A stretch of DNA of 33,659 bases from an uncultured Candidatus Bathyarchaeia archaeon (GTDB lineage: Archaea; Thermoproteota; Bathyarchaeia; EX4484-135; B24-G1): positions 1 through 33,659 of the forward strand of contig CAZKUI010000004.1 in NCBI GenBank assembly GCA_964555905.1, written 5' to 3'. Shown here in pieces: positions 6,107-12,937 of this stretch. Positions within the stretch are counted from its first letter, which is position 1, and each line of letters opens with the position of its first letter. The position numbers and the translations under genes were made by a program. The notes below the pieces were generated by a model. The model saw only the letters and a program-made list of their open reading frames with translations. It searched no databases and had not been told where the DNA came from.

Positions 6107-6775
6107 TTGAATAGGAGAGTAGGCATATACACCGTAGTTTTGGTAGTCCTCTTGGGGATGACCGCCTATGCGTATGTAGACCTCCAATCTAAGTACGTAA
6201 ATCTGCGAGATAGCTACCTAAAGCTGATGGAAGATTATTCCAATCTAGCGGAGGAGCACGAGGAACTAGCGGCAAAGTATGAGAGGCTCCTCCTGGAGGT
6301 AAACCGGACGCTGGAACCCTCGGTCTCGGTTACGCCCCTCAACGACGGGGAATACTATGAAACAGCCCTGAGGCTCATCAACTCCGCCAACGAAAGCGTC
6401 TACATCATCATGTACGCCGCCAAGTACGACCCGGATGACCCCGTAGACCCCGCCAACGACCTCCTTGGGGCGTTGGTGGGGGCGGCACATAGGGGAGTTA
6501 GGGTGTGCGCGATTCTTGATGACGAGGTAGGTTGCAACGAGGAGACTCTGAGCTACCTTCAATCAGCTGGTGTAAACGCAACGTACGACCCGAAGGATGT
6601 GAGAACCCACTCAAAAATCGTGATTGTTGACGGATATTTGGTGCTTATTGGAAGCCACAACTGGACTGAGAGCGGCTTGGCGTACAACCACGAGACGAGC
6701 GTCCTAGTCTCCTCTAGACAGTTCGCTCAGCTTGAAATCGCATATTTTAACTCGGTGTGGGCGGAGGCCTCCTAG
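6107..6775 (+). CDS. Membrane-anchored phospholipase D/Nuc-family protein
   Basis: N-terminal TM segment, coiled coil, and a single HKD motif HSKIVIVD...GSHNW...NHE. Confidence 0.85.
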   Translation: MNRRVGIYTVVLVVLLGMTAYAYVDLQSKYVNLRDSYLKLMEDYSNLAEEHEELAAKYERLLLEVNRTLEPSVSVTPLNDGEYYETALRLINSANESVYIIMYAAKYDPDDPVDPANDLLGALVGAAHRGVRVCAILDDEVGCNEETLSYLQSAGVNATYDPKDVRTHSKIVIVDGYLVLIGSHNWTESGLAYNHETSVLVSSRQFAQLEIAYFNSVWAEAS

Positions 6776-8017
6776 GTGGAGGGGCGCTACGTCTACCGCA
6801 GGAATCCGGATGAGTGCCGCGAATGCGGCTTCTGCGAGGAGCACATTCTATGCCCCGGAGTTGGTGGGTCCACCATCCACAGGCCGGAGCGGCTATGCGT
6901 TGGTTGTGGGGTGTGCTACGTAGCGTGCCCCTACGAGGCGGTTGAAGCCGTGACGGATGAGACGCCCAGAAGCACCGTTCGCATAGTCGTAGACGGGGAG
7001 GTCTACGAGGTCCCGGAGAGGACGACCGTAAGGCACGCCCTCCAAACCCTTGGATGGGAGTTCACGAAAATTCCGGTGGAGGGTCGCCTCTACGCCCCCT
7101 GCGAGACCGGCGGCTGTTATGCCTGCGCTTTACTCGTAGACGGGGAGCTTAGGCCCTCATGCACCACCCCGGTGAAGGACGGAATGGAGATAAGCACGAA
7201 CTTGGAGGGGTATACACCCCTCAGGAGGGTGTCCGGGTATCAGCCGCATCCGGTTGGCGGCGTTGGAACCCCTTGGTGGATTAAGGGGGAAAGCAGATAC
7301 ATAGAGGTTGCGTGCTTCGCCCACGGCTGCAACCTCAGGTGCCCACAATGCCAGAACTACTCGGTGACGTATGACAATGTAACGCCGCCATCCACGCCGG
7401 TGGAGGCCGCCAGAAGGCTCACGTGGTTGAGGTGGTGGTATAACGTAGACAGGATGGCGATCTCAGGGGGAGAACCCACCCTCAACCGCCCATGGCTGAT
7501 CAAATTTTTCACCGAGCTACGCAGGCTGAACAAAGACCCGAAGGCCAGGCTCCACCTAGACACCAACGCCACGCTCCTCACACCAGACTACATAGACGAA
7601 CTGGTAGAGGCCGGAGTCACCGACATAGGCCCAGACCTAAAGGGCCTACGCGTTGAAACTTTCATGGAGATAACTGGAATCCGAGACAAAGACCTAGCCA
7701 GTAAGTATCTGAAGAACTCCTGGTCGGCCGTAAAGTACATACTGGATGAGTACTACCCAGATAGGGTCTTCCTCGGAATCGGCATACCATATAATAGGTG
7801 TTTCATGAGCCTAGAGGAGCTTCGGGAGATTGGAGACCGAATCGCATCCATGAACCCCCAAGTCCAAGTATGCATCCTAGATTACTTCCCTACATTCAGG
7901 AGACGCGCCATGAGGAAACCGACGGTCGAAGAGATGAGGAAGGCGAGAGAAACACTCCTAGAAGCTGGATTAAAGACGGTAATCGCACAGACTGCCATCG
8001 GTTATTTAGGCCCTTAA
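6776..8017 (+). CDS. Radical SAM protein (PFL-activating-enzyme-like) with N-terminal 2x[4Fe-4S] ferredoxin and [2Fe-2S] domains
   Basis: CRECGFC...CP, CVGCGVCYVACP, CETGGCYAC...SC, CNLRCPQC, SGGEPT, DTN. Confidence 0.85.
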   Translation: MEGRYVYRRNPDECRECGFCEEHILCPGVGGSTIHRPERLCVGCGVCYVACPYEAVEAVTDETPRSTVRIVVDGEVYEVPERTTVRHALQTLGWEFTKIPVEGRLYAPCETGGCYACALLVDGELRPSCTTPVKDGMEISTNLEGYTPLRRVSGYQPHPVGGVGTPWWIKGESRYIEVACFAHGCNLRCPQCQNYSVTYDNVTPPSTPVEAARRLTWLRWWYNVDRMAISGGEPTLNRPWLIKFFTELRRLNKDPKARLHLDTNATLLTPDYIDELVEAGVTDIGPDLKGLRVETFMEITGIRDKDLASKYLKNSWSAVKYILDEYYPDRVFLGIGIPYNRCFMSLEELREIGDRIASMNPQVQVCILDYFPTFRRRAMRKPTVEEMRKARETLLEAGLKTVIAQTAIGYLGP

Positions 8018-8043
8018 ATGGCCTGAACTTAAAGGTCATTTAA
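8014..8043. repeat. Inverted repeat (11-bp arms, 1 mismatch, 8-nt spacer)
   Basis: TTAAATGGCCT-gaacttaa-AGGTCATTTAA overlaps the radical SAM stop codon. Confidence 0.6.
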
Positions 8044-8078
8044 TCTTAAATTATAGTACTTACCATAAAATCCTATCG

Positions 8079-8086
8079 TTTAAATA
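8079..8086 (+). promoter_or_regulatory. Putative TATA box of the ftsZ-like operon
   Basis: TTTAAATA in an AT-rich intergenic region, about 50 nt upstream of GTG 8136, which has a GGAGG SD. Confidence 0.55.
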
Positions 8087-8135
8087 AGAGAAGTTCTCCA
8101 AAATTAGTGAACATAATATACGGAGGGACGAACAA

Positions 8136-9122
8136 GTGGCGTCTATCTTCCCTGCCGGTAAACCGGAGAGGCCGGTAGTAGAGATGGTGGTCGCTGGGTT
8201 CGGAGGCTGCGGGTGCAACACCGTGAGCAACCTCTACGGGAAAAGCTCGGCGCGCCTCATAGCCGTGGATACGGACGCCAGCAACCTCACGGTAACGAAG
8301 GCGGACAAAACCCTACAGGTGGGAGAGGCGCTCACTAAGGGGAGGGGCACGGGAGGCGACATAGGCCTGGGAAGGAAGGTGGCTGAAAGCGATGTAGATA
8401 ACATCCTAGACGTTCTAGGCGCCCCGGACCTCCTCATAGCCGCCGCCGGCCTCGGAGGCGGCGTCGGCTCTGGAACCATGCCGTACGTTCTAGCGGCCTT
8501 CAGGGAGAAGTACCCAGACAAGCTCATCGGAGCGGTGGTCACGGTCCCCTTCAAGTACGAGGGGGTTGAACGCCTAAAGAACACGCAAATCGCCATCAGG
8601 GAGCTACTCGACGCAGCCGACTTCGTCATAGTGAACCTAAACGACCTACTCCTGAAGCGCTACGGGGTTCTGCCGGTTCAGGACGCCATGAAGATCATGG
8701 ACAGCATCCTAGCTAATGGCATATTCGGGTTGGTGGACATGCTGGACCCAACGAACTCCGTCATTAGAACGGACTTCTCCGACTTCACGGCGGTCGTGAG
8801 GAGGAGCGGGGTGAACCTCCTAGGGTACGGCGTGCAGGCCAACGCTAGGAAGGCAACCGAGAGGGCAATCGCTCAGTCCCTGCTGGATGCGGATCTCTCC
8901 ACGGCTAGGGGCGCCCTAGTCTTCGTGAAGGCGCCTCTTGGCGCTAACCTCCAAGAGGCCAGCGAGGCTCCGAGAATCCTGAACGAGTTGTATGGGGTGA
9001 GTAAGGTGACTTGGGGCTTGAAGGTCGCCCCTGACGTTAAGAGGACGCATGTAATGGTGGTGGCTAGTGGTGTCACCTCCAAGACGATTAATGAAACGCT
9101 CAGCGAGGTGGGAGGTGAGTAG
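8136..9122 (+). CDS. FtsZ/tubulin-family GTPase, copy 1 (type A)
   Basis: GFGGCGCN, DTD, GRGTGG, signature GLGGGVGSG, PFKYEGVER, T7 IRTDFSDF. Confidence 0.92.
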   Translation: MASIFPAGKPERPVVEMVVAGFGGCGCNTVSNLYGKSSARLIAVDTDASNLTVTKADKTLQVGEALTKGRGTGGDIGLGRKVAESDVDNILDVLGAPDLLIAAAGLGGGVGSGTMPYVLAAFREKYPDKLIGAVVTVPFKYEGVERLKNTQIAIRELLDAADFVIVNLNDLLLKRYGVLPVQDAMKIMDSILANGIFGLVDMLDPTNSVIRTDFSDFTAVVRRSGVNLLGYGVQANARKATERAIAQSLLDADLSTARGALVFVKAPLGANLQEASEAPRILNELYGVSKVTWGLKVAPDVKRTHVMVVASGVTSKTINETLSEVGGE

Positions 9123-9124
9123 GA

Positions 9125-10141
9125 ATGGCTGGATTAGGGTTTGGAGATGAGGAGCTACTGGCGGAGAGGGAAAGGAGGGCGGCTGTGAAGATAAACGTCG
9201 TCGGCGTTGGAGGCTGCGGAAACAACGCAATAAACAACCTCTACAAGCTGAGGCTCCCGGCGAAGCTCATCGCCATGAACACCGACGCACCAGTCCTCAG
9301 AAAGACGGCGGCCGACAAGAAGGTCCTCCTCAGCGGCCTCACGGAAATCCCGAGGGGAGCCCACGGAGTCCCGGATGTAGGGGCTAAGGCCATGGAGAAC
9401 AGCATCGACGATGCCATAGCCGCCATAGACAAGGACGTAGACGCCGTCATCGGAGTTGCGGGGCTCGGCGGTGGAACCGGAACCGGAGGCCTACCAGTTC
9501 TGTTTAGGGAGTTGGCGGTGAGGAGGAAGGATGCCCTTAGAATCGCCGTGGTGACGCTGCCATTCAAGGAGGAGGGTGACGAGAGGGTCAAGAACGCGCA
9601 GATGGGCCTGCAGGAGCTCCTAGAGTGCTCCGACACGGTGATACCGAACGCCAACGACGTGCTGGCGGAGAAGATGGGAGGCGTCACCATGACGTACGCC
9701 TTCAAGGTCATGGACAAGAAGATAGCCAGAGTGGTGGAGGCGCTGGTGAGGCTTCAGTCGCCGGAGACCGGCCCGGGGATAATAAACGTGGACTTCTCCA
9801 ACGTGAAGAGGATAATGCGAAATGCGCGCGTCTCCTTCGCCGGGGTGGGTGAGGGCAGGAGGGTCTACGACGCCTTCACCAAGGCGTTGAAGGACGACTA
9901 CGCCGAGACGGACCTGTCTACGTCCCACGGGATGGTTCTCTACTACGAGGGCAAGGAGGTCTACCTAGACATGAGCCAGATAAGGAGCACCATCAACTAC
10001 ATAACGAACAACTTCGGGACATCTACCGTGTTCTTCGGCATAAGGCCCACATGGGAACTGGCGGAGGTGAGGGCGTCGCTAATCGCCTGCGGAGTGAGGA
10101 GCAACTACTTAGACGAATTCCTAGGAGGTGAAGTCCCGTGA
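9125..10141 (+). CDS. FtsZ/tubulin-family GTPase, copy 2 (type B)
   Basis: GVGGCGNN, NTD, GLGGGTGTG, PFKEEGDER, T7 INVDFSNV; GGAGGTGA SD. Confidence 0.93.
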   Translation: MAGLGFGDEELLAERERRAAVKINVVGVGGCGNNAINNLYKLRLPAKLIAMNTDAPVLRKTAADKKVLLSGLTEIPRGAHGVPDVGAKAMENSIDDAIAAIDKDVDAVIGVAGLGGGTGTGGLPVLFRELAVRRKDALRIAVVTLPFKEEGDERVKNAQMGLQELLECSDTVIPNANDVLAEKMGGVTMTYAFKVMDKKIARVVEALVRLQSPETGPGIINVDFSNVKRIMRNARVSFAGVGEGRRVYDAFTKALKDDYAETDLSTSHGMVLYYEGKEVYLDMSQIRSTINYITNNFGTSTVFFGIRPTWELAEVRASLIACGVRSNYLDEFLGGEVP

Positions 10142-10395
10142 GCTTCTTCAGGAGGAAGCGCGAGGTAAGCCCGCCGCTGGAGGAGCTGATCAACAAGTTC
10201 CTAGACGAGCACCCCGGGGAGGTGGACCTAGCGTGGCACCTAGAGATGGAGAAGATGCCCTACATACCACCGGTGGTCAAGTTCGCCGACTGGGCCTCGG
10301 AGAAGGGCTACAACTCCAACTATGACCGCAGGGAGGTGGAGGCGGAGATGATGAAGGCTGTCATGCTAAGGGTTACAAAGAGGGGGGTGAGGTGA
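10138..10395 (+). CDS. Small hypothetical protein embedded in the ftsZ-like operon
   Basis: 85 aa. GTGA start/stop overlap with copy 2, GGAGGTGA SD, and a 1-nt gap to copy 3. Confidence 0.8.
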   Translation: MSFFRRKREVSPPLEELINKFLDEHPGEVDLAWHLEMEKMPYIPPVVKFADWASEKGYNSNYDRREVEAEMMKAVMLRVTKRGVR

Positions 10396-10396
10396 A

Positions 10397-11404
10397 GTGG
10401 CAAGCGTGGAGAATGCATACCTAAGGGAGGTCGTGGGTAAGAGGGCCGCCGTTAAGATGGCTGTAGTAGGCATAGGAGGCTGCGGGTGCAACACCATCAC
10501 AAACCTAGAGATGGCCGGAGTGGAGGTCCCCACCATCGCCGTAGACATGGACGCCGTCACGCTCCACAAGACGAGGGCGAAACACAAGGTGCTGATAGGG
10601 GAAACCACCACCCACGGGAGAGGCTCAGGTGGCCTACTCTCCCTGGGAAGGAAGGTCATGTCGGATGAGATAGAGAAGGTGGCAACCCTCATAAAGGACG
10701 CGGAGCTGGTGATCGTGACCGCTGGCCTGGGGGGCGGAACTGGAAGCGGTGGAATAGCCACCTTCGTGGAGTACATGGACGAGAACATGAAGGACAAACT
10801 CCTATGGAGCGTGGTGACGCTTCCCTTCGAATCCGAGGGGACGGAGAGGGCGAAAAACGCCAGCACAGCCCTGAGGGAGGTAATGGAACTCTCGGACATG
10901 ACGATAGTCCACAGCAACGACGTCCTTAAAGCCAAGGCTAGGCACGCATCCATAATCCAAGCGTTCAGGCGCATGGATAAGGTCCTAACAAACGCCATAA
11001 CCGGGCTGCTGAGGCTTCAGGGAGCCGAGCCCGTCCCGGGGCTCATCAGCATAGACTTCTCCAACATCGAGAGGGTCACGAGGGATTCGGGCCTCGGCTT
11101 CGTGGGGGTCGGCGAGGGCAGGGACACCCTAACCGCCTTCGAGAACTCGCTGAAGGAGAACTACGCGGAGGCGGATATAACCAACGCCCAGGGCGCCGTG
11201 GTTCTGGTGGAGGCGAGGAAGGCTGTGCTGAGCACCGGAGGCGTGGAGGAGATACCGAGAATCCTGAAGGAGAACTACGGAATAACCACCATATACTTCG
11301 GGGTGCGCCCGGACTGGACGCTCCACCTGCCGAAGGTGACCCTAGTAACCTCCGGTGTGCGGTCTAAGCTGGTGGACAACTACCTCAGGGGGAGCGAGAA
11401 GTGA
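10397..11404 (+). CDS. FtsZ/tubulin-family GTPase, copy 3 (type B')
   Basis: GIGGCGCN, DMD, GRGSGG, GLGGGTGSG, PFESEGTER, T7 ISIDFSNI. Confidence 0.93.
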   Translation: MASVENAYLREVVGKRAAVKMAVVGIGGCGCNTITNLEMAGVEVPTIAVDMDAVTLHKTRAKHKVLIGETTTHGRGSGGLLSLGRKVMSDEIEKVATLIKDAELVIVTAGLGGGTGSGGIATFVEYMDENMKDKLLWSVVTLPFESEGTERAKNASTALREVMELSDMTIVHSNDVLKAKARHASIIQAFRRMDKVLTNAITGLLRLQGAEPVPGLISIDFSNIERVTRDSGLGFVGVGEGRDTLTAFENSLKENYAEADITNAQGAVVLVEARKAVLSTGGVEEIPRILKENYGITTIYFGVRPDWTLHLPKVTLVTSGVRSKLVDNYLRGSEK

Positions 11405-12366
11405 GCGAGGAGGTCAAGCCGGGCATAGTTGTGGTGGGCGTGGGCGGCTGCGGGTGCAACACGCTGAACAGGCTGTACGAGGTGGGGGTGGAGGTTCCCA
11501 CCATCGCCGTGCACACCGAGGCTGTTCACCTAAAGACGGTGAAGGCGACAGCCACCATACTCGTGGGGCGCACCACCACCGAGGGGCGCGGAAGCGGCGG
11601 AAACCCGATCAAGGGGCAGATGGCCATGAGCGAGGACGTAGACGCCGTCATCTCGGCGATGGGCTCCCCGAACGTGGTCATCGCAACCGGGGGCCTAGGC
11701 GGGGGGACGGCGTCAGGCGGGATTCCGGTCCTCCTAGACGAGGTGAAGAGCCGCTTCCCGGAGGCATTAAGAATCTCCCTAGTAACCATACCCTTCACGT
11801 TCGAGGGAATAAACCGCATGGAAAACGCGAGGATAGGCCTCAGGGCGATTATAGACCGCTCGGACCTCACCATCGTGAACATGAATGACCTACTGCTGAA
11901 GAAGATAGGGGATATACAGGTTCAGTACGCGTTCAAGTTCATGGACAGCATACTGGTGAACACGCTGAAGGGCCTCGTAGACCTCATCACAAAGCCAGCT
12001 GTGGTCAGCATAAGCTTCGCCGACTTCCACTCGCTCGTGAAGGACATGAACCTAGGCATGGTTGGGCATGGAGTCGGAAGGAAGGTGAGGGAGGCGCTGG
12101 AGAACGCCGTGAAGAACAAGCTCGTAGACGCGGAGCTAGAAACCGCCGAGGGCGCCCTACTATACATAACGGCCCCGCCAGCCGTCACCCTGCAGGAGGC
12201 CAGCGAAGCCGCCAGAACCCTAACGGAGCAGTACCACATAGGCCGAGTTTTTTGGGGCCTAAGAACCGAGGAGGGCATTGAACGCCCAACCGTGATGCTG
12301 GCGGCCTCCAACGTCACATCGCCAACCATCAACAACCTCATAGGAACCACCGAGAAGATGTTCTAG
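11401..12366 (+). CDS. FtsZ/tubulin-family GTPase, copy 4 (type A')
   Basis: GVGGCGCN, HTE, GRGSGG, GLGGGTASG, PFTFEGINR, T7 VSISFADF; GTGA overlap with copy 3. Confidence 0.92.
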   Translation: MSEEVKPGIVVVGVGGCGCNTLNRLYEVGVEVPTIAVHTEAVHLKTVKATATILVGRTTTEGRGSGGNPIKGQMAMSEDVDAVISAMGSPNVVIATGGLGGGTASGGIPVLLDEVKSRFPEALRISLVTIPFTFEGINRMENARIGLRAIIDRSDLTIVNMNDLLLKKIGDIQVQYAFKFMDSILVNTLKGLVDLITKPAVVSISFADFHSLVKDMNLGMVGHGVGRKVREALENAVKNKLVDAELETAEGALLYITAPPAVTLQEASEAARTLTEQYHIGRVFWGLRTEEGIERPTVMLAASNVTSPTINNLIGTTEKMF

Positions 12367-12937
12367 CAGCCGACCGAGCGGGGGCGCCTGCGCCCCCGCT
12401 CTCCACAGCCACCACGCTGGGGCCCTCCGCTGGTTCGGCGATTATCTCGCAGTATGGGTCCCCCCTCGCGATGCACCTGACCTCCCTACCAACGATTTTC
12501 ACGTTTCCCCTCCTTTTTCTGCTAGATTCCGCTACGTATTGCAGCACGCCGGCTATGATTCCCCTCCATAGGTGGCAGGCGGGTCTACCGGCGTCGCGTA
12601 GCTCCTCCGCTGGCGAGTGCCGTATTATCACGTCGACCCTGGGCTTATCCATGTTGAGTTCTACGAGGCCGAAGACGCCCCAACCCCTTACGAATCCGGT
12701 GTGTAGGCACGCCTCCATTATGGCTGGCCCCTTCAGCCCCCGGGAGCCCAGGCTCTTAGCGAGGTTGTAGCCGCCTTTGAAGCCAGCGTTGTAGAGGAAT
12801 AGGGCGGCTCCCCTAGCTCCAAAGAATTTTTCGGCTGTCTGTTGGAGTAGCGCCATAAATCCCCTAGTTATTATTAATATCGGGGTTTCGCCCAAAAACA
12901 GCCTTCCAAACTTATCCGAGGAAATCTCGACCTTCAC
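12338..12937 (-). CDS. V4R (4-vinyl reductase-like) ligand-binding domain protein
   Basis: LYNAGFKGG, GWG, PACHLWRGIIAG, EVRCIARGDPYCEI. Confidence 0.85.
   Translation of the reverse strand: MKVEISSDKFGRLFLGETPILIITRGFMALLQQTAEKFFGARGAALFLYNAGFKGGYNLAKSLGSRGLKGPAIMEACLHTGFVRGWGVFGLVELNMDKPRVDVIIRHSPAEELRDAGRPACHLWRGIIAGVLQYVAESSRKRRGNVKIVGREVRCIARGDPYCEIIAEPAEGPSVVAVESGGAGAPARSAARTSSRWFL
12376..12401. terminator. Perfect GC-rich hairpin after the ftsZ-like operon (terminator or 3' stabiliser candidate)
   Basis: GAGCGGGGGCGC-CT-GCGCCCCCGCTC, 9 nt after the stop at 12366. No U-tract follows, so the function is uncertain. Confidence 0.45.

Follow-up and report, generated by a model that had tools for sequence, protein, structure and literature searches.

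In canonical FtsZ, the T7 loop follows the consensus N-x-D-F-A-D (N207, D209, and D212 in Escherichia coli), and a C-terminal tail binds anchors. When the last of these acids is replaced by alanine, the E. coli D212A protein is reported to keep 7% of GTPase activity (PMC8142252). In eukaryotic and Heimdallarchaeales tubulins, alpha-tubulin gives the catalytic Glu and beta-tubulin has Lys; for the Heimdallarchaeales proteins, this split into catalytic and noncatalytic subunits is described as having predicted an obligate heterodimer that was then confirmed biochemically and structurally, with approximately one hydrolysis event per dimer (PMC13371889). Among archaeal FtsZ-like proteins, a seven-gene cluster of Candidatus Korarchaeum containing five ftsZ paralogs and a PRC-barrel gene has been attributed to Elkins et al. 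2008 (bioRxiv 10.1101/2023.03.28.534543), and noncanonical FtsZ-like sequences of "yet undetermined role" have been noted in the Korarchaeia and Bathyarchaeia (PMC9723716). Here, we describe four ftsZ paralogs (c1 to c4) and a small gene (s1) carried by an uncultured hydrothermal archaeon of the Candidatus Bathyarchaeia, at positions 8136 to 12366 of a 33,659-nucleotide (nt) stretch of contig CAZKUI010000004.1 (assembly GCA_964555905.1; hereafter, the window). The original prediction for this locus had proposed that reciprocal active-site degeneration produced an obligate heteropolymer resembling alpha/beta-tubulin. We find that a division of the paralogs into copies that keep the final T7 acid (A type) and copies that do not (B type) is conserved among relatives, and our best reading, to which we assign a probability of roughly 45%, is that the two types co-assemble into a filament with hydrolyzing and nonhydrolyzing interfaces.

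The plus strand of this region holds four short FtsZ-like open reading frames (ORFs) and one ORF of 85 amino acids (aa). In order, these are c1 (8136 to 9122; 328 aa), an A-type short FtsZ-like GTPase with RTDFSD at T7 and GGGVGSG at T4; c2 (9125 to 10141; 338 aa), of the B type, with NVDFSN and GGGTGTG; s1 (10138 to 10395; 85 aa), of no known family; c3 (10397 to 11404; 335 aa), again of the B type, with SIDFSN and GGGTGSG; and c4 (11401 to 12366; 321 aa), of the A type, with SISFAD and GGGTASG. These T7 and T4 strings are exact in the alignment, as the original prediction had given them. Successive genes are separated by 2 nt, a 4-nt overlap between the c2 stop and the s1 start, 1 nt between the end of s1 and c3, and a 4-nt overlap between the c3 stop and the c4 start, a spacing from which c1-c2-s1-c3-c4 reads as a five-gene operon. 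Among the window copies, both acids of the canonical T7 motif (N-x-D-F-x-D) are found only in c1, which has Arg in place of the Asn; the canonical T4 motif GGGTG[ST]G is present in c2 and c3 and absent from c1 and c4.

Most of these substitutions are fixed among orthologs. In all 11 c2 orthologs, down to 42% identity, N221, D223, N226, and the GGGTGTG loop are invariant, and in a HMMER alignment the final Asn of c2 falls opposite the last Asp of the Methanocaldococcus jannaschii NVDFAD motif (chain residue 238). The final T7 Asn and a canonical T4 loop likewise occur in 7 of 7 c3 orthologs. In c4, the D209 equivalent is lost and the D212 equivalent is kept: 16 of 16 ortholog clusters (52 to 99% identity) have the GGGTASG loop and end T7 with Asp, with Ser or Gly where D209 would be, and the final Asp is likewise kept at all 9 loci. 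The c1 orthologs all carry both acids in an [RH]xDFxD loop (8/8), the first position being Arg or His and not Asn, and their variable T4 residue is V in three, T in four, and M in one. Relatives of the window encode a fifth paralog, c5, with variable T4 and T7 loops, in which the final T7 position is nonacidic in 6 of 6 sequences (H, V, S, or I). Co-encoded paralogs thus present complementary residues at the same T7 position, Asp in c1 and c4 versus Asn in c2 and c3, and do so in their orthologs as well. For a background, we took 147 newly listed representative c3 homologs and set aside 9 that BLAST assigned to the cluster family; of the remaining 138, N/D/D occupies the three T7 positions in 127, GGGTG[TS]G is present in 129, and the final acid is missing in 5. 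As a control, single-copy short relatives from the same class are canonical at T4 and T7 at 3 of 3 loci, as are P0148, P0158, and P0176. The T4/T7 pattern of c1 to c4 is more than chance. At the first T7 position, Asn is present in 129 of the 138 background homologs versus Arg or His in c1 (8/8) and Ser in c4, so that the A types, too, depart from canonical FtsZ inside T7; a basic residue at this position of c1 could reach the phosphates of the neighboring subunit.

These comparisons support the original prediction in part. Conservation of the substitutions among orthologs is borne out for the Asp-to-Asn change of c2 and c3 and for the changes in c4, but does not extend to the c1 signature loop. 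Likewise, every window copy is altered at T4 and/or T7, as had been claimed, but the statement that no copy is canonical at both sites does not carry across orthologs, where the T4 change of c1 is lineage specific. Strict reciprocity of active-site degeneration is likewise not upheld across orthologs, because GGGVGSG is not conserved among the eight c1 orthologs.

Ratios of nonsynonymous to synonymous substitution rates (dN/dS) were calculated between the window and a family-level relative (G001) and are approximate, dS being high (0.9 to 1.7): 0.077 for c1, 0.070 for c2, 0.063 for c3, 0.075 for c4, and 0.172 for s1. All five operon genes are under purifying selection, and with values of 0.06 to 0.17, pseudogene decay is rejected. 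The remainder of the c2 T7 loop is also invariant across the 11 orthologs (P217, G218, N221, D223, and N226). An invariant Asn within an invariant flanking loop, together with dN/dS values of 0.06 to 0.08, suggests a selected contact at a nonhydrolyzing interface and not decay. The same evidence bears on whether the B types could instead be cappers or regulators of A filaments, with either the intact nucleotide face or the dead T7 face as the binding surface, such that a nonhydrolyzing end stabilizes the filament or terminates its growth. Loss of the T7 acid in the B types would fit such a role, as would the distribution of the FtsZ_C domain, for which Pfam matches are present in c1 (E value of 1.9e-9) and c4 (1.1e-8) and undetectable in c2 and c3; the variable T7 and T4 loops of c5 are also what would be expected of a less constrained accessory subunit. 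However, the rest of the c2 T7 loop has not varied, strong purifying selection maintains both faces, and three different cappers for two filament formers would be unparsimonious, so we regard capping as quite improbable.

All four paralogs match PF00091 (Tubulin/FtsZ) at 106 to 117 bits against a cutoff of 33, with E values between 2e-33 and 3e-30 (6.5e-31 for c1, 2.8e-30 for c2, 2.2e-33 for c3, and 3.8e-31 for c4). The solved sequences matched at E values up to 1e-20 are FtsZ in 49 of 49 cases, which, with the FtsZ_C matches of c1 and c4, puts the paralogs outside the tubulin family proper; among these structures, M. jannaschii FtsZ (1W5E/1FSZ; HMMER E value of 2.6e-47) is the best match to c2. 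The alignment to this protein stops with the globular core, at chain residue 343 of 364, and c1 to c4 lack a C-terminal tail; their lengths of 321 to 338 aa compare with 347 to 389 aa for canonical FtsZ ORFs in related genomes, to which they are 31 to 36% identical. None of the four reaches the 295.2-bit cutoff of the canonical FtsZ equivalog TIGR00065 (187.7 for c1, 189.3 for c2, 179.1 for c3, and 209.9 for c4). None of the four window paralogs varies at the ribose and guanine determinants (E142, R146, N169, and D170). From these features, c1 to c4 are classed as core-only FtsZ-family GTPases of approximately 330 aa. Compared with canonical FtsZ (archaeal FtsZ1/FtsZ2 and bacterial proteins, as captured by TIGR00065), the GTPase fold and the T1 to T6 nucleotide determinants are alike; c1 to c4 differ in being tailless, in scoring below the equivalog cutoff, in forming a separate clade, and in the alteration of T4 and/or T7 in every window copy.

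The A and B types can also be told apart in phylogenies. We built quick maximum-likelihood trees with support from the Shimodaira-Hasegawa-like approximate likelihood ratio test (SH-aLRT), first on 54 rows, for which divergent tubulin-like proteins from related genomes supplied the outgroup, and then on 50, once three outgroup rows and one c5 row, all of them long, had been removed; truncated sequences (L038 and the L039 fragment) were excluded. In the 54-row tree, each ortholog group falls on one side of a branch (support of 99 for c1, 100 for c2, 94 for c3, and 99 for c4), and c1 and c4 are sisters (89). In the 50-row tree, a branch with a support of 100 divides the short family (single-copy proteins and c1 to c5) from the canonical FtsZ of archaea and bacteria, a second branch (99) sets c2, c3, and c5 apart, and a third (81) does so for c1 and c4. 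The A-B-x-B'-A' order set out in the original prediction therefore has tree support (99 for the c2-c3-c5 branch; 81 to 89 for c1-c4), and the residue patterns on which it was based are exact in the alignment: LQEASEA.R.L and VTS.TIN are common to c1 and c4, and RAAVK, L.RLQ..E..PG.I, YAE.D, FG.RP.W, and GVRS are common to c2 and c3. A simple A/B pair does not describe the ancestral cluster, which has a fifth paralog (the B-type c5) and hence an A-to-B ratio of 2:3. The branching indicates that the A and B types are older than the divergence of their carriers.

In a mixed filament, the A types (c1 and c4) would use their retained T7 Asp to activate GTP hydrolysis in the subunit below, and the B types (c2 and c3, with c5 in relatives) would pair a fixed nonacidic T7 residue, Asn in c2 and c3, with the canonical nucleotide-binding loops of c2 and c3. 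Head-to-tail co-assembly, the likeliest mechanism, would give mixed protofilaments in which GTP held by a B subunit is hydrolyzed only with an A subunit on top, like the E site of tubulin, and the nucleotide of an A subunit capped by a B subunit stays unhydrolyzed, like the N site. By analogy, A would correspond to alpha-tubulin and B to beta-tubulin, and gene adjacency suggests c1-c2 and c3-c4 as the pairs. Beta-tubulin keeps the first Asn and the Asp of the motif and has lost the last acid, a parallel to the N-x-D-x-x-N of the B types.

Several observations weigh against co-assembly. Four of the 8 c1 orthologs are close to canonical, and c1 could therefore polymerize alone; c4, lacking the D209-equivalent acid, may have an impaired T7 loop itself. 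Simple 1:1 alternation is a poor fit to the full cluster, with its two A-type and three B-type paralogs. An Asn at T7 might retain some activity, the residue available for comparison being D212A and not D212N. The deep branching of cluster paralogs relative to single-copy proteins has an SH-aLRT support of only 23 in the quick 50-row tree, and since the window's genome (G000) is 88% complete and G001 58% complete, a canonical FtsZ could be unassembled.

Some of the same facts would suit separate homopolymers, in which static, nonhydrolyzing B scaffolds and dynamic A filaments form independently and the operon reflects a shared function, as for archaeal FtsZ1/FtsZ2 or CetZ paralogs. Invariance of E142, R146, N169, and D170 means that each paralog probably binds nucleotide, FtsZ T7 mutants are described as still GTP binding (PMC3684127), and both the near-canonical c1 orthologs and the unequal A and B counts of the full cluster fit filaments that form on their own. 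Such independence sits poorly with the finding that three independent T7-dead lineages always occur beside T7-competent paralogs (6/6 complete clusters), while single-copy relatives are never T7 dead; translational coupling, moreover, suggests matched stoichiometry. We consider separate homopolymers unlikely and continue to prefer co-assembly of the two types.

Mixed filaments of this kind would resemble, and differ from, other systems with divided or degenerate FtsZ/tubulin subunits. Alpha/beta-tubulin and the Asgard heterodimers (Lokiarchaeal and Heimdallarchaeales) are described as having the same split between an acid and a nonacid at T7 with the nucleotide loops kept in both subunits (PMC13371889). 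Unlike alpha/beta-tubulin, c1 to c4 belong to the FtsZ family, substitute Asn and not Lys, and comprise four to five paralogs instead of two; their heterodimer is a prediction. Chloroplast FtsZ1 and FtsZ2 are likewise duplicated FtsZ paralogs reported to co-assemble into a heteropolymer, with differing contributions to turnover; the chloroplast FtsZ1 variant without the T7 Asp is an engineered mutant (D275A; PMC8142252), whereas in c2 and c3 the loss is natural and fixed. The FtsZ-like protein of Nitrosopumilus maritimus, from a TACK (Thaumarchaeota, Aigarchaeota, Crenarchaeota, Korarchaeota) archaeon with Cdv proteins, is also noncanonical and is described as lacking the conserved T7 loop; however, it is single copy, has no GTP-binding motif, and did not polymerize in yeast according to the same account, whereas c1 to c4 keep the nucleotide determinants and two of them keep the catalytic Asp (PMC3684127). 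Separately, three proteins of 744 to 840 aa (P0145, P0146, and P0149) contain two complete FtsZ domains per polypeptide, with canonical T4 and T7 motifs in both halves. We considered such natural double-FtsZ fusions as Rosetta-stone support for a heteropolymer and rejected them, since both halves are canonical and not close to the c1-to-c5 family. No prior description of the catalytic split was found in the literature searched.

To survey relatives, we scanned one genome per species with c4 patterns and confirmed 66 loci of 215 matched stretches. The top 8 loci, at 52 to 88% identity, are c4 orthologs in seven genomes; the remainder do not exceed 35% identity and represent FtsZ of bacteria. 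ORF calling and BLAST at these 8 loci gave the layout c1-c2-s1-c3-(small gene)-c5-c4. The gene order of the window operon is repeated in G001 and five further species-level genomes, and c1, c2, s1, c3, and c4 match genes of L035 to L041 in the same order; across carriers, the only conserved neighbors are the paralogs and the small genes. The extra small gene between c3 and c5 encodes a PRC-barrel protein of 78 to 85 aa (L040, 6745 to 7002; L041, 6739 to 6996; L037, 6775 to 7014; L039, 785 to 1021), which exceeded the Pfam cutoff in 3 of 3 cases tested. The window, like G001, contains four paralogs, with c5 and the PRC-barrel gene absent from the cluster. Judged by gene content and order, the window operon is therefore a reduced variant of the seven-gene cluster of ftsZ paralogs and a PRC-barrel gene carried by Korarchaeum-like archaea. 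One PRC match occurs in G000 outside the cluster (C31, 1218 to 1409).

The seven genes of L040 and L041 fit the cluster described for Korarchaeum. The gene cluster itself is not new, because it is cited for Korarchaeum and noncanonical FtsZ-like sequences have been noted in the Korarchaeia and Bathyarchaeia; for the conserved catalytic split, and for a reduced cluster in a genome that bears Cdv genes, no earlier description was found in the literature searched. The window genes c1 to c4 and s1 are orthologous to those of a Korarchaeum-labeled metagenome-assembled genome (MAG) and related MAGs, with like gene order and like T7 and T4 patterns. They differ from the Korarchaeum case in that the host carries CdvA/ESCRT-III and not canonical FtsZ plus SepF, and no mention of a catalytic split was found for the Korarchaeum cluster in the literature searched. 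A few further occurrences were seen. One MAG (G402; L036 and L037) contains a full seven-gene cluster and a second, partial c3-c5-c4 cluster on another contig, which is either a real duplication or the product of two strains binned together. Four short FtsZ-like proteins of 306 to 315 aa (P0162, P0207, P0195, and P0284) have degenerate T4 and/or T7 motifs, for example, GKGMGS with KPDFPL, or TLSFEN, and may belong to further multiparalog sets. A metagenome scan with the c2 alignment, which gave generic patterns, returned no new c2 orthologs, its best 80 loci being 29 to 41% identical.

The cluster coexists with either archaeal division system. In G000 (1.13 Mb, 88% complete), the four paralogs are the only PF00091 matches, and SepF was not found. 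The same genome has a trio of ESCRT-type division genes, CdvB-like/CdvA/CdvB-like, on contig C16 (L100, 1279 to 3513): CdvA matches PF18822 at 35.4 bits against a cutoff of 30, the gene upstream gives a weak Snf7/ESCRT-III match that is below the Pfam cutoff, as is the Sulfolobus control, and the gene downstream encodes a similar coiled-coil protein without a Pfam match. We checked five other carriers for CdvA, SepF, and further FtsZ. One (G401) has the cluster and CdvA; G402, with two clusters (five and three paralogs), yielded neither CdvA nor SepF; and in three Korarchaeum-like carriers the cluster is accompanied by SepF and by one or two additional FtsZ matches located elsewhere (386 to 448 aa as open frames). 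Because the genomes are incomplete, absences of division genes are unproven. Coexistence with either system, together with paralogs that have no anchor-binding tail, indicates that the predicted polymer of c1 to c4 is probably an accessory cytoskeleton, serving cell shape or another membrane or DNA task, and not part of the core division machinery.

A small protein accompanies the paralogs. All 6 complete clusters encode s1 between c2 and the paralog that follows it. The window s1 has a basic-hydrophobic N terminus (FFRRKRE), and six orthologs are laid out with a short N terminus of this kind, a linker that is Pro rich and variable, and a core of approximately 60 aa that is conserved (GEV.LAW...P..PP), with 12 invariant columns in the alignment. 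No match to s1 was found in Pfam, NCBIfam, PADLOC, or PHROG. Its Atlas model is helical, with weak structural neighbors, and a complex prediction of c2 and c3 with s1 as partner, controls being absent, gave a score of 0.00 and a mark of 0.32, a result neutral on s1 binding. We would guess from its layout that s1 is tether-like, and it may be an adaptor.

A tether-like s1 is one of the features that could place the cluster in cell division after all. The paralogs would then form the division ring and, in the window's lineage, replace canonical FtsZ1/FtsZ2, with s1 serving in place of SepF as the membrane tether. This would account for the lack of any other PF00091 match and of SepF in G000, and for the PRC-barrel gene among the paralogs of the full cluster, as PRC-barrel proteins are reported to act in the FtsZ-based division of Haloferax. 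Yet G000 and G401 both have CdvA, in G000 beside two ESCRT-III-like genes, the Korarchaeum-like carriers keep SepF and FtsZ matches outside the cluster, and c1 to c4 have no C-terminal tail of the sort canonical FtsZ uses for anchors. A division ring is therefore very improbable in our estimation, and an accessory role remains the probable one.

Upstream of c1, a 118-nt AT-rich intergenic leader (8018 to 8135, plus strand) contains TATA-like stretches (tttaaataag at approximately 8079 to 8088) and a GGAGG-like ribosome-binding site at 8123 to 8127, 8 nt upstream of the c1 GTG start. As the sole sizable gap in the unit, it is a probable promoter region for the operon. The array is also bridged by metagenome contigs from other runs, the best-matching run having been set aside as a possible source sample: a 4909-nt contig spans 7500 to 11754 with 13 differences, and a 1776-nt contig spans 9464 to 11239. 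On the minus strand, a V4R/DUF5943 gene (12338 to 12937) is convergent with c4, the last 29 nt of which it overlaps; this is the sole neighbor beyond the cluster also present in G001 (60% identity), and it is not shared with other carriers. Directly upstream of the operon (6107 to 8017) lies a gene for a PLD-like protein of the phospholipase D/cardiolipin synthase type with an N-terminal hydrophobic stretch, next to one for a radical SAM protein with ferredoxin-like domains; neither neighbors the cluster in other genomes. Long ORFs antisense to the operon (minus strand, 8234 to 8629, 9241 to 9717, 10366 to 10998, and 11526 to 11882) or out of frame with it (plus strand, 11355 to 11888) recur in the same places in related loci and resemble shadow frames of conserved, GC-rich genes more than genes in their own right. 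A defense origin was rejected, as none of the five operon proteins has a PADLOC match. A mobile origin was also rejected: only weak PhuZ-like PHROG matches were found (c1 and c3), the window contains no tRNA gene, and its GC content is even.

It is conceivable, though on balance we think it somewhat doubtful, that TACK archaea evolved an alpha/beta-tubulin-like polymer independently, from FtsZ instead of tubulin. Such a polymer would consist of two heterodimers (c1-c2 and c4-c3), with a structural, unhydrolyzed nucleotide under the Asn subunit, an exchangeable, hydrolyzed one under the Asp subunit, and s1 as an adaptor. If so, catalytic division of labor would have a second, convergent origin in the superfamily. 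Should the mixed-filament reading hold, a split between catalytic and structural paralogs would be recurrent, arising inside the FtsZ branch too and not as a one-off on the tubulin line to eukaryotes. The four proteins, of approximately 330 aa each and from a thermophile, are recombinant friendly and offer a system in which to ask why a polymer would gain from hydrolyzing GTP at only every second interface. The cluster travels separately from the main division system of the cell, and the mixed-filament reading, if true, would supply a first hypothesis of function for a set of korarchaeal genes to which no role has been assigned since their description in 2008.

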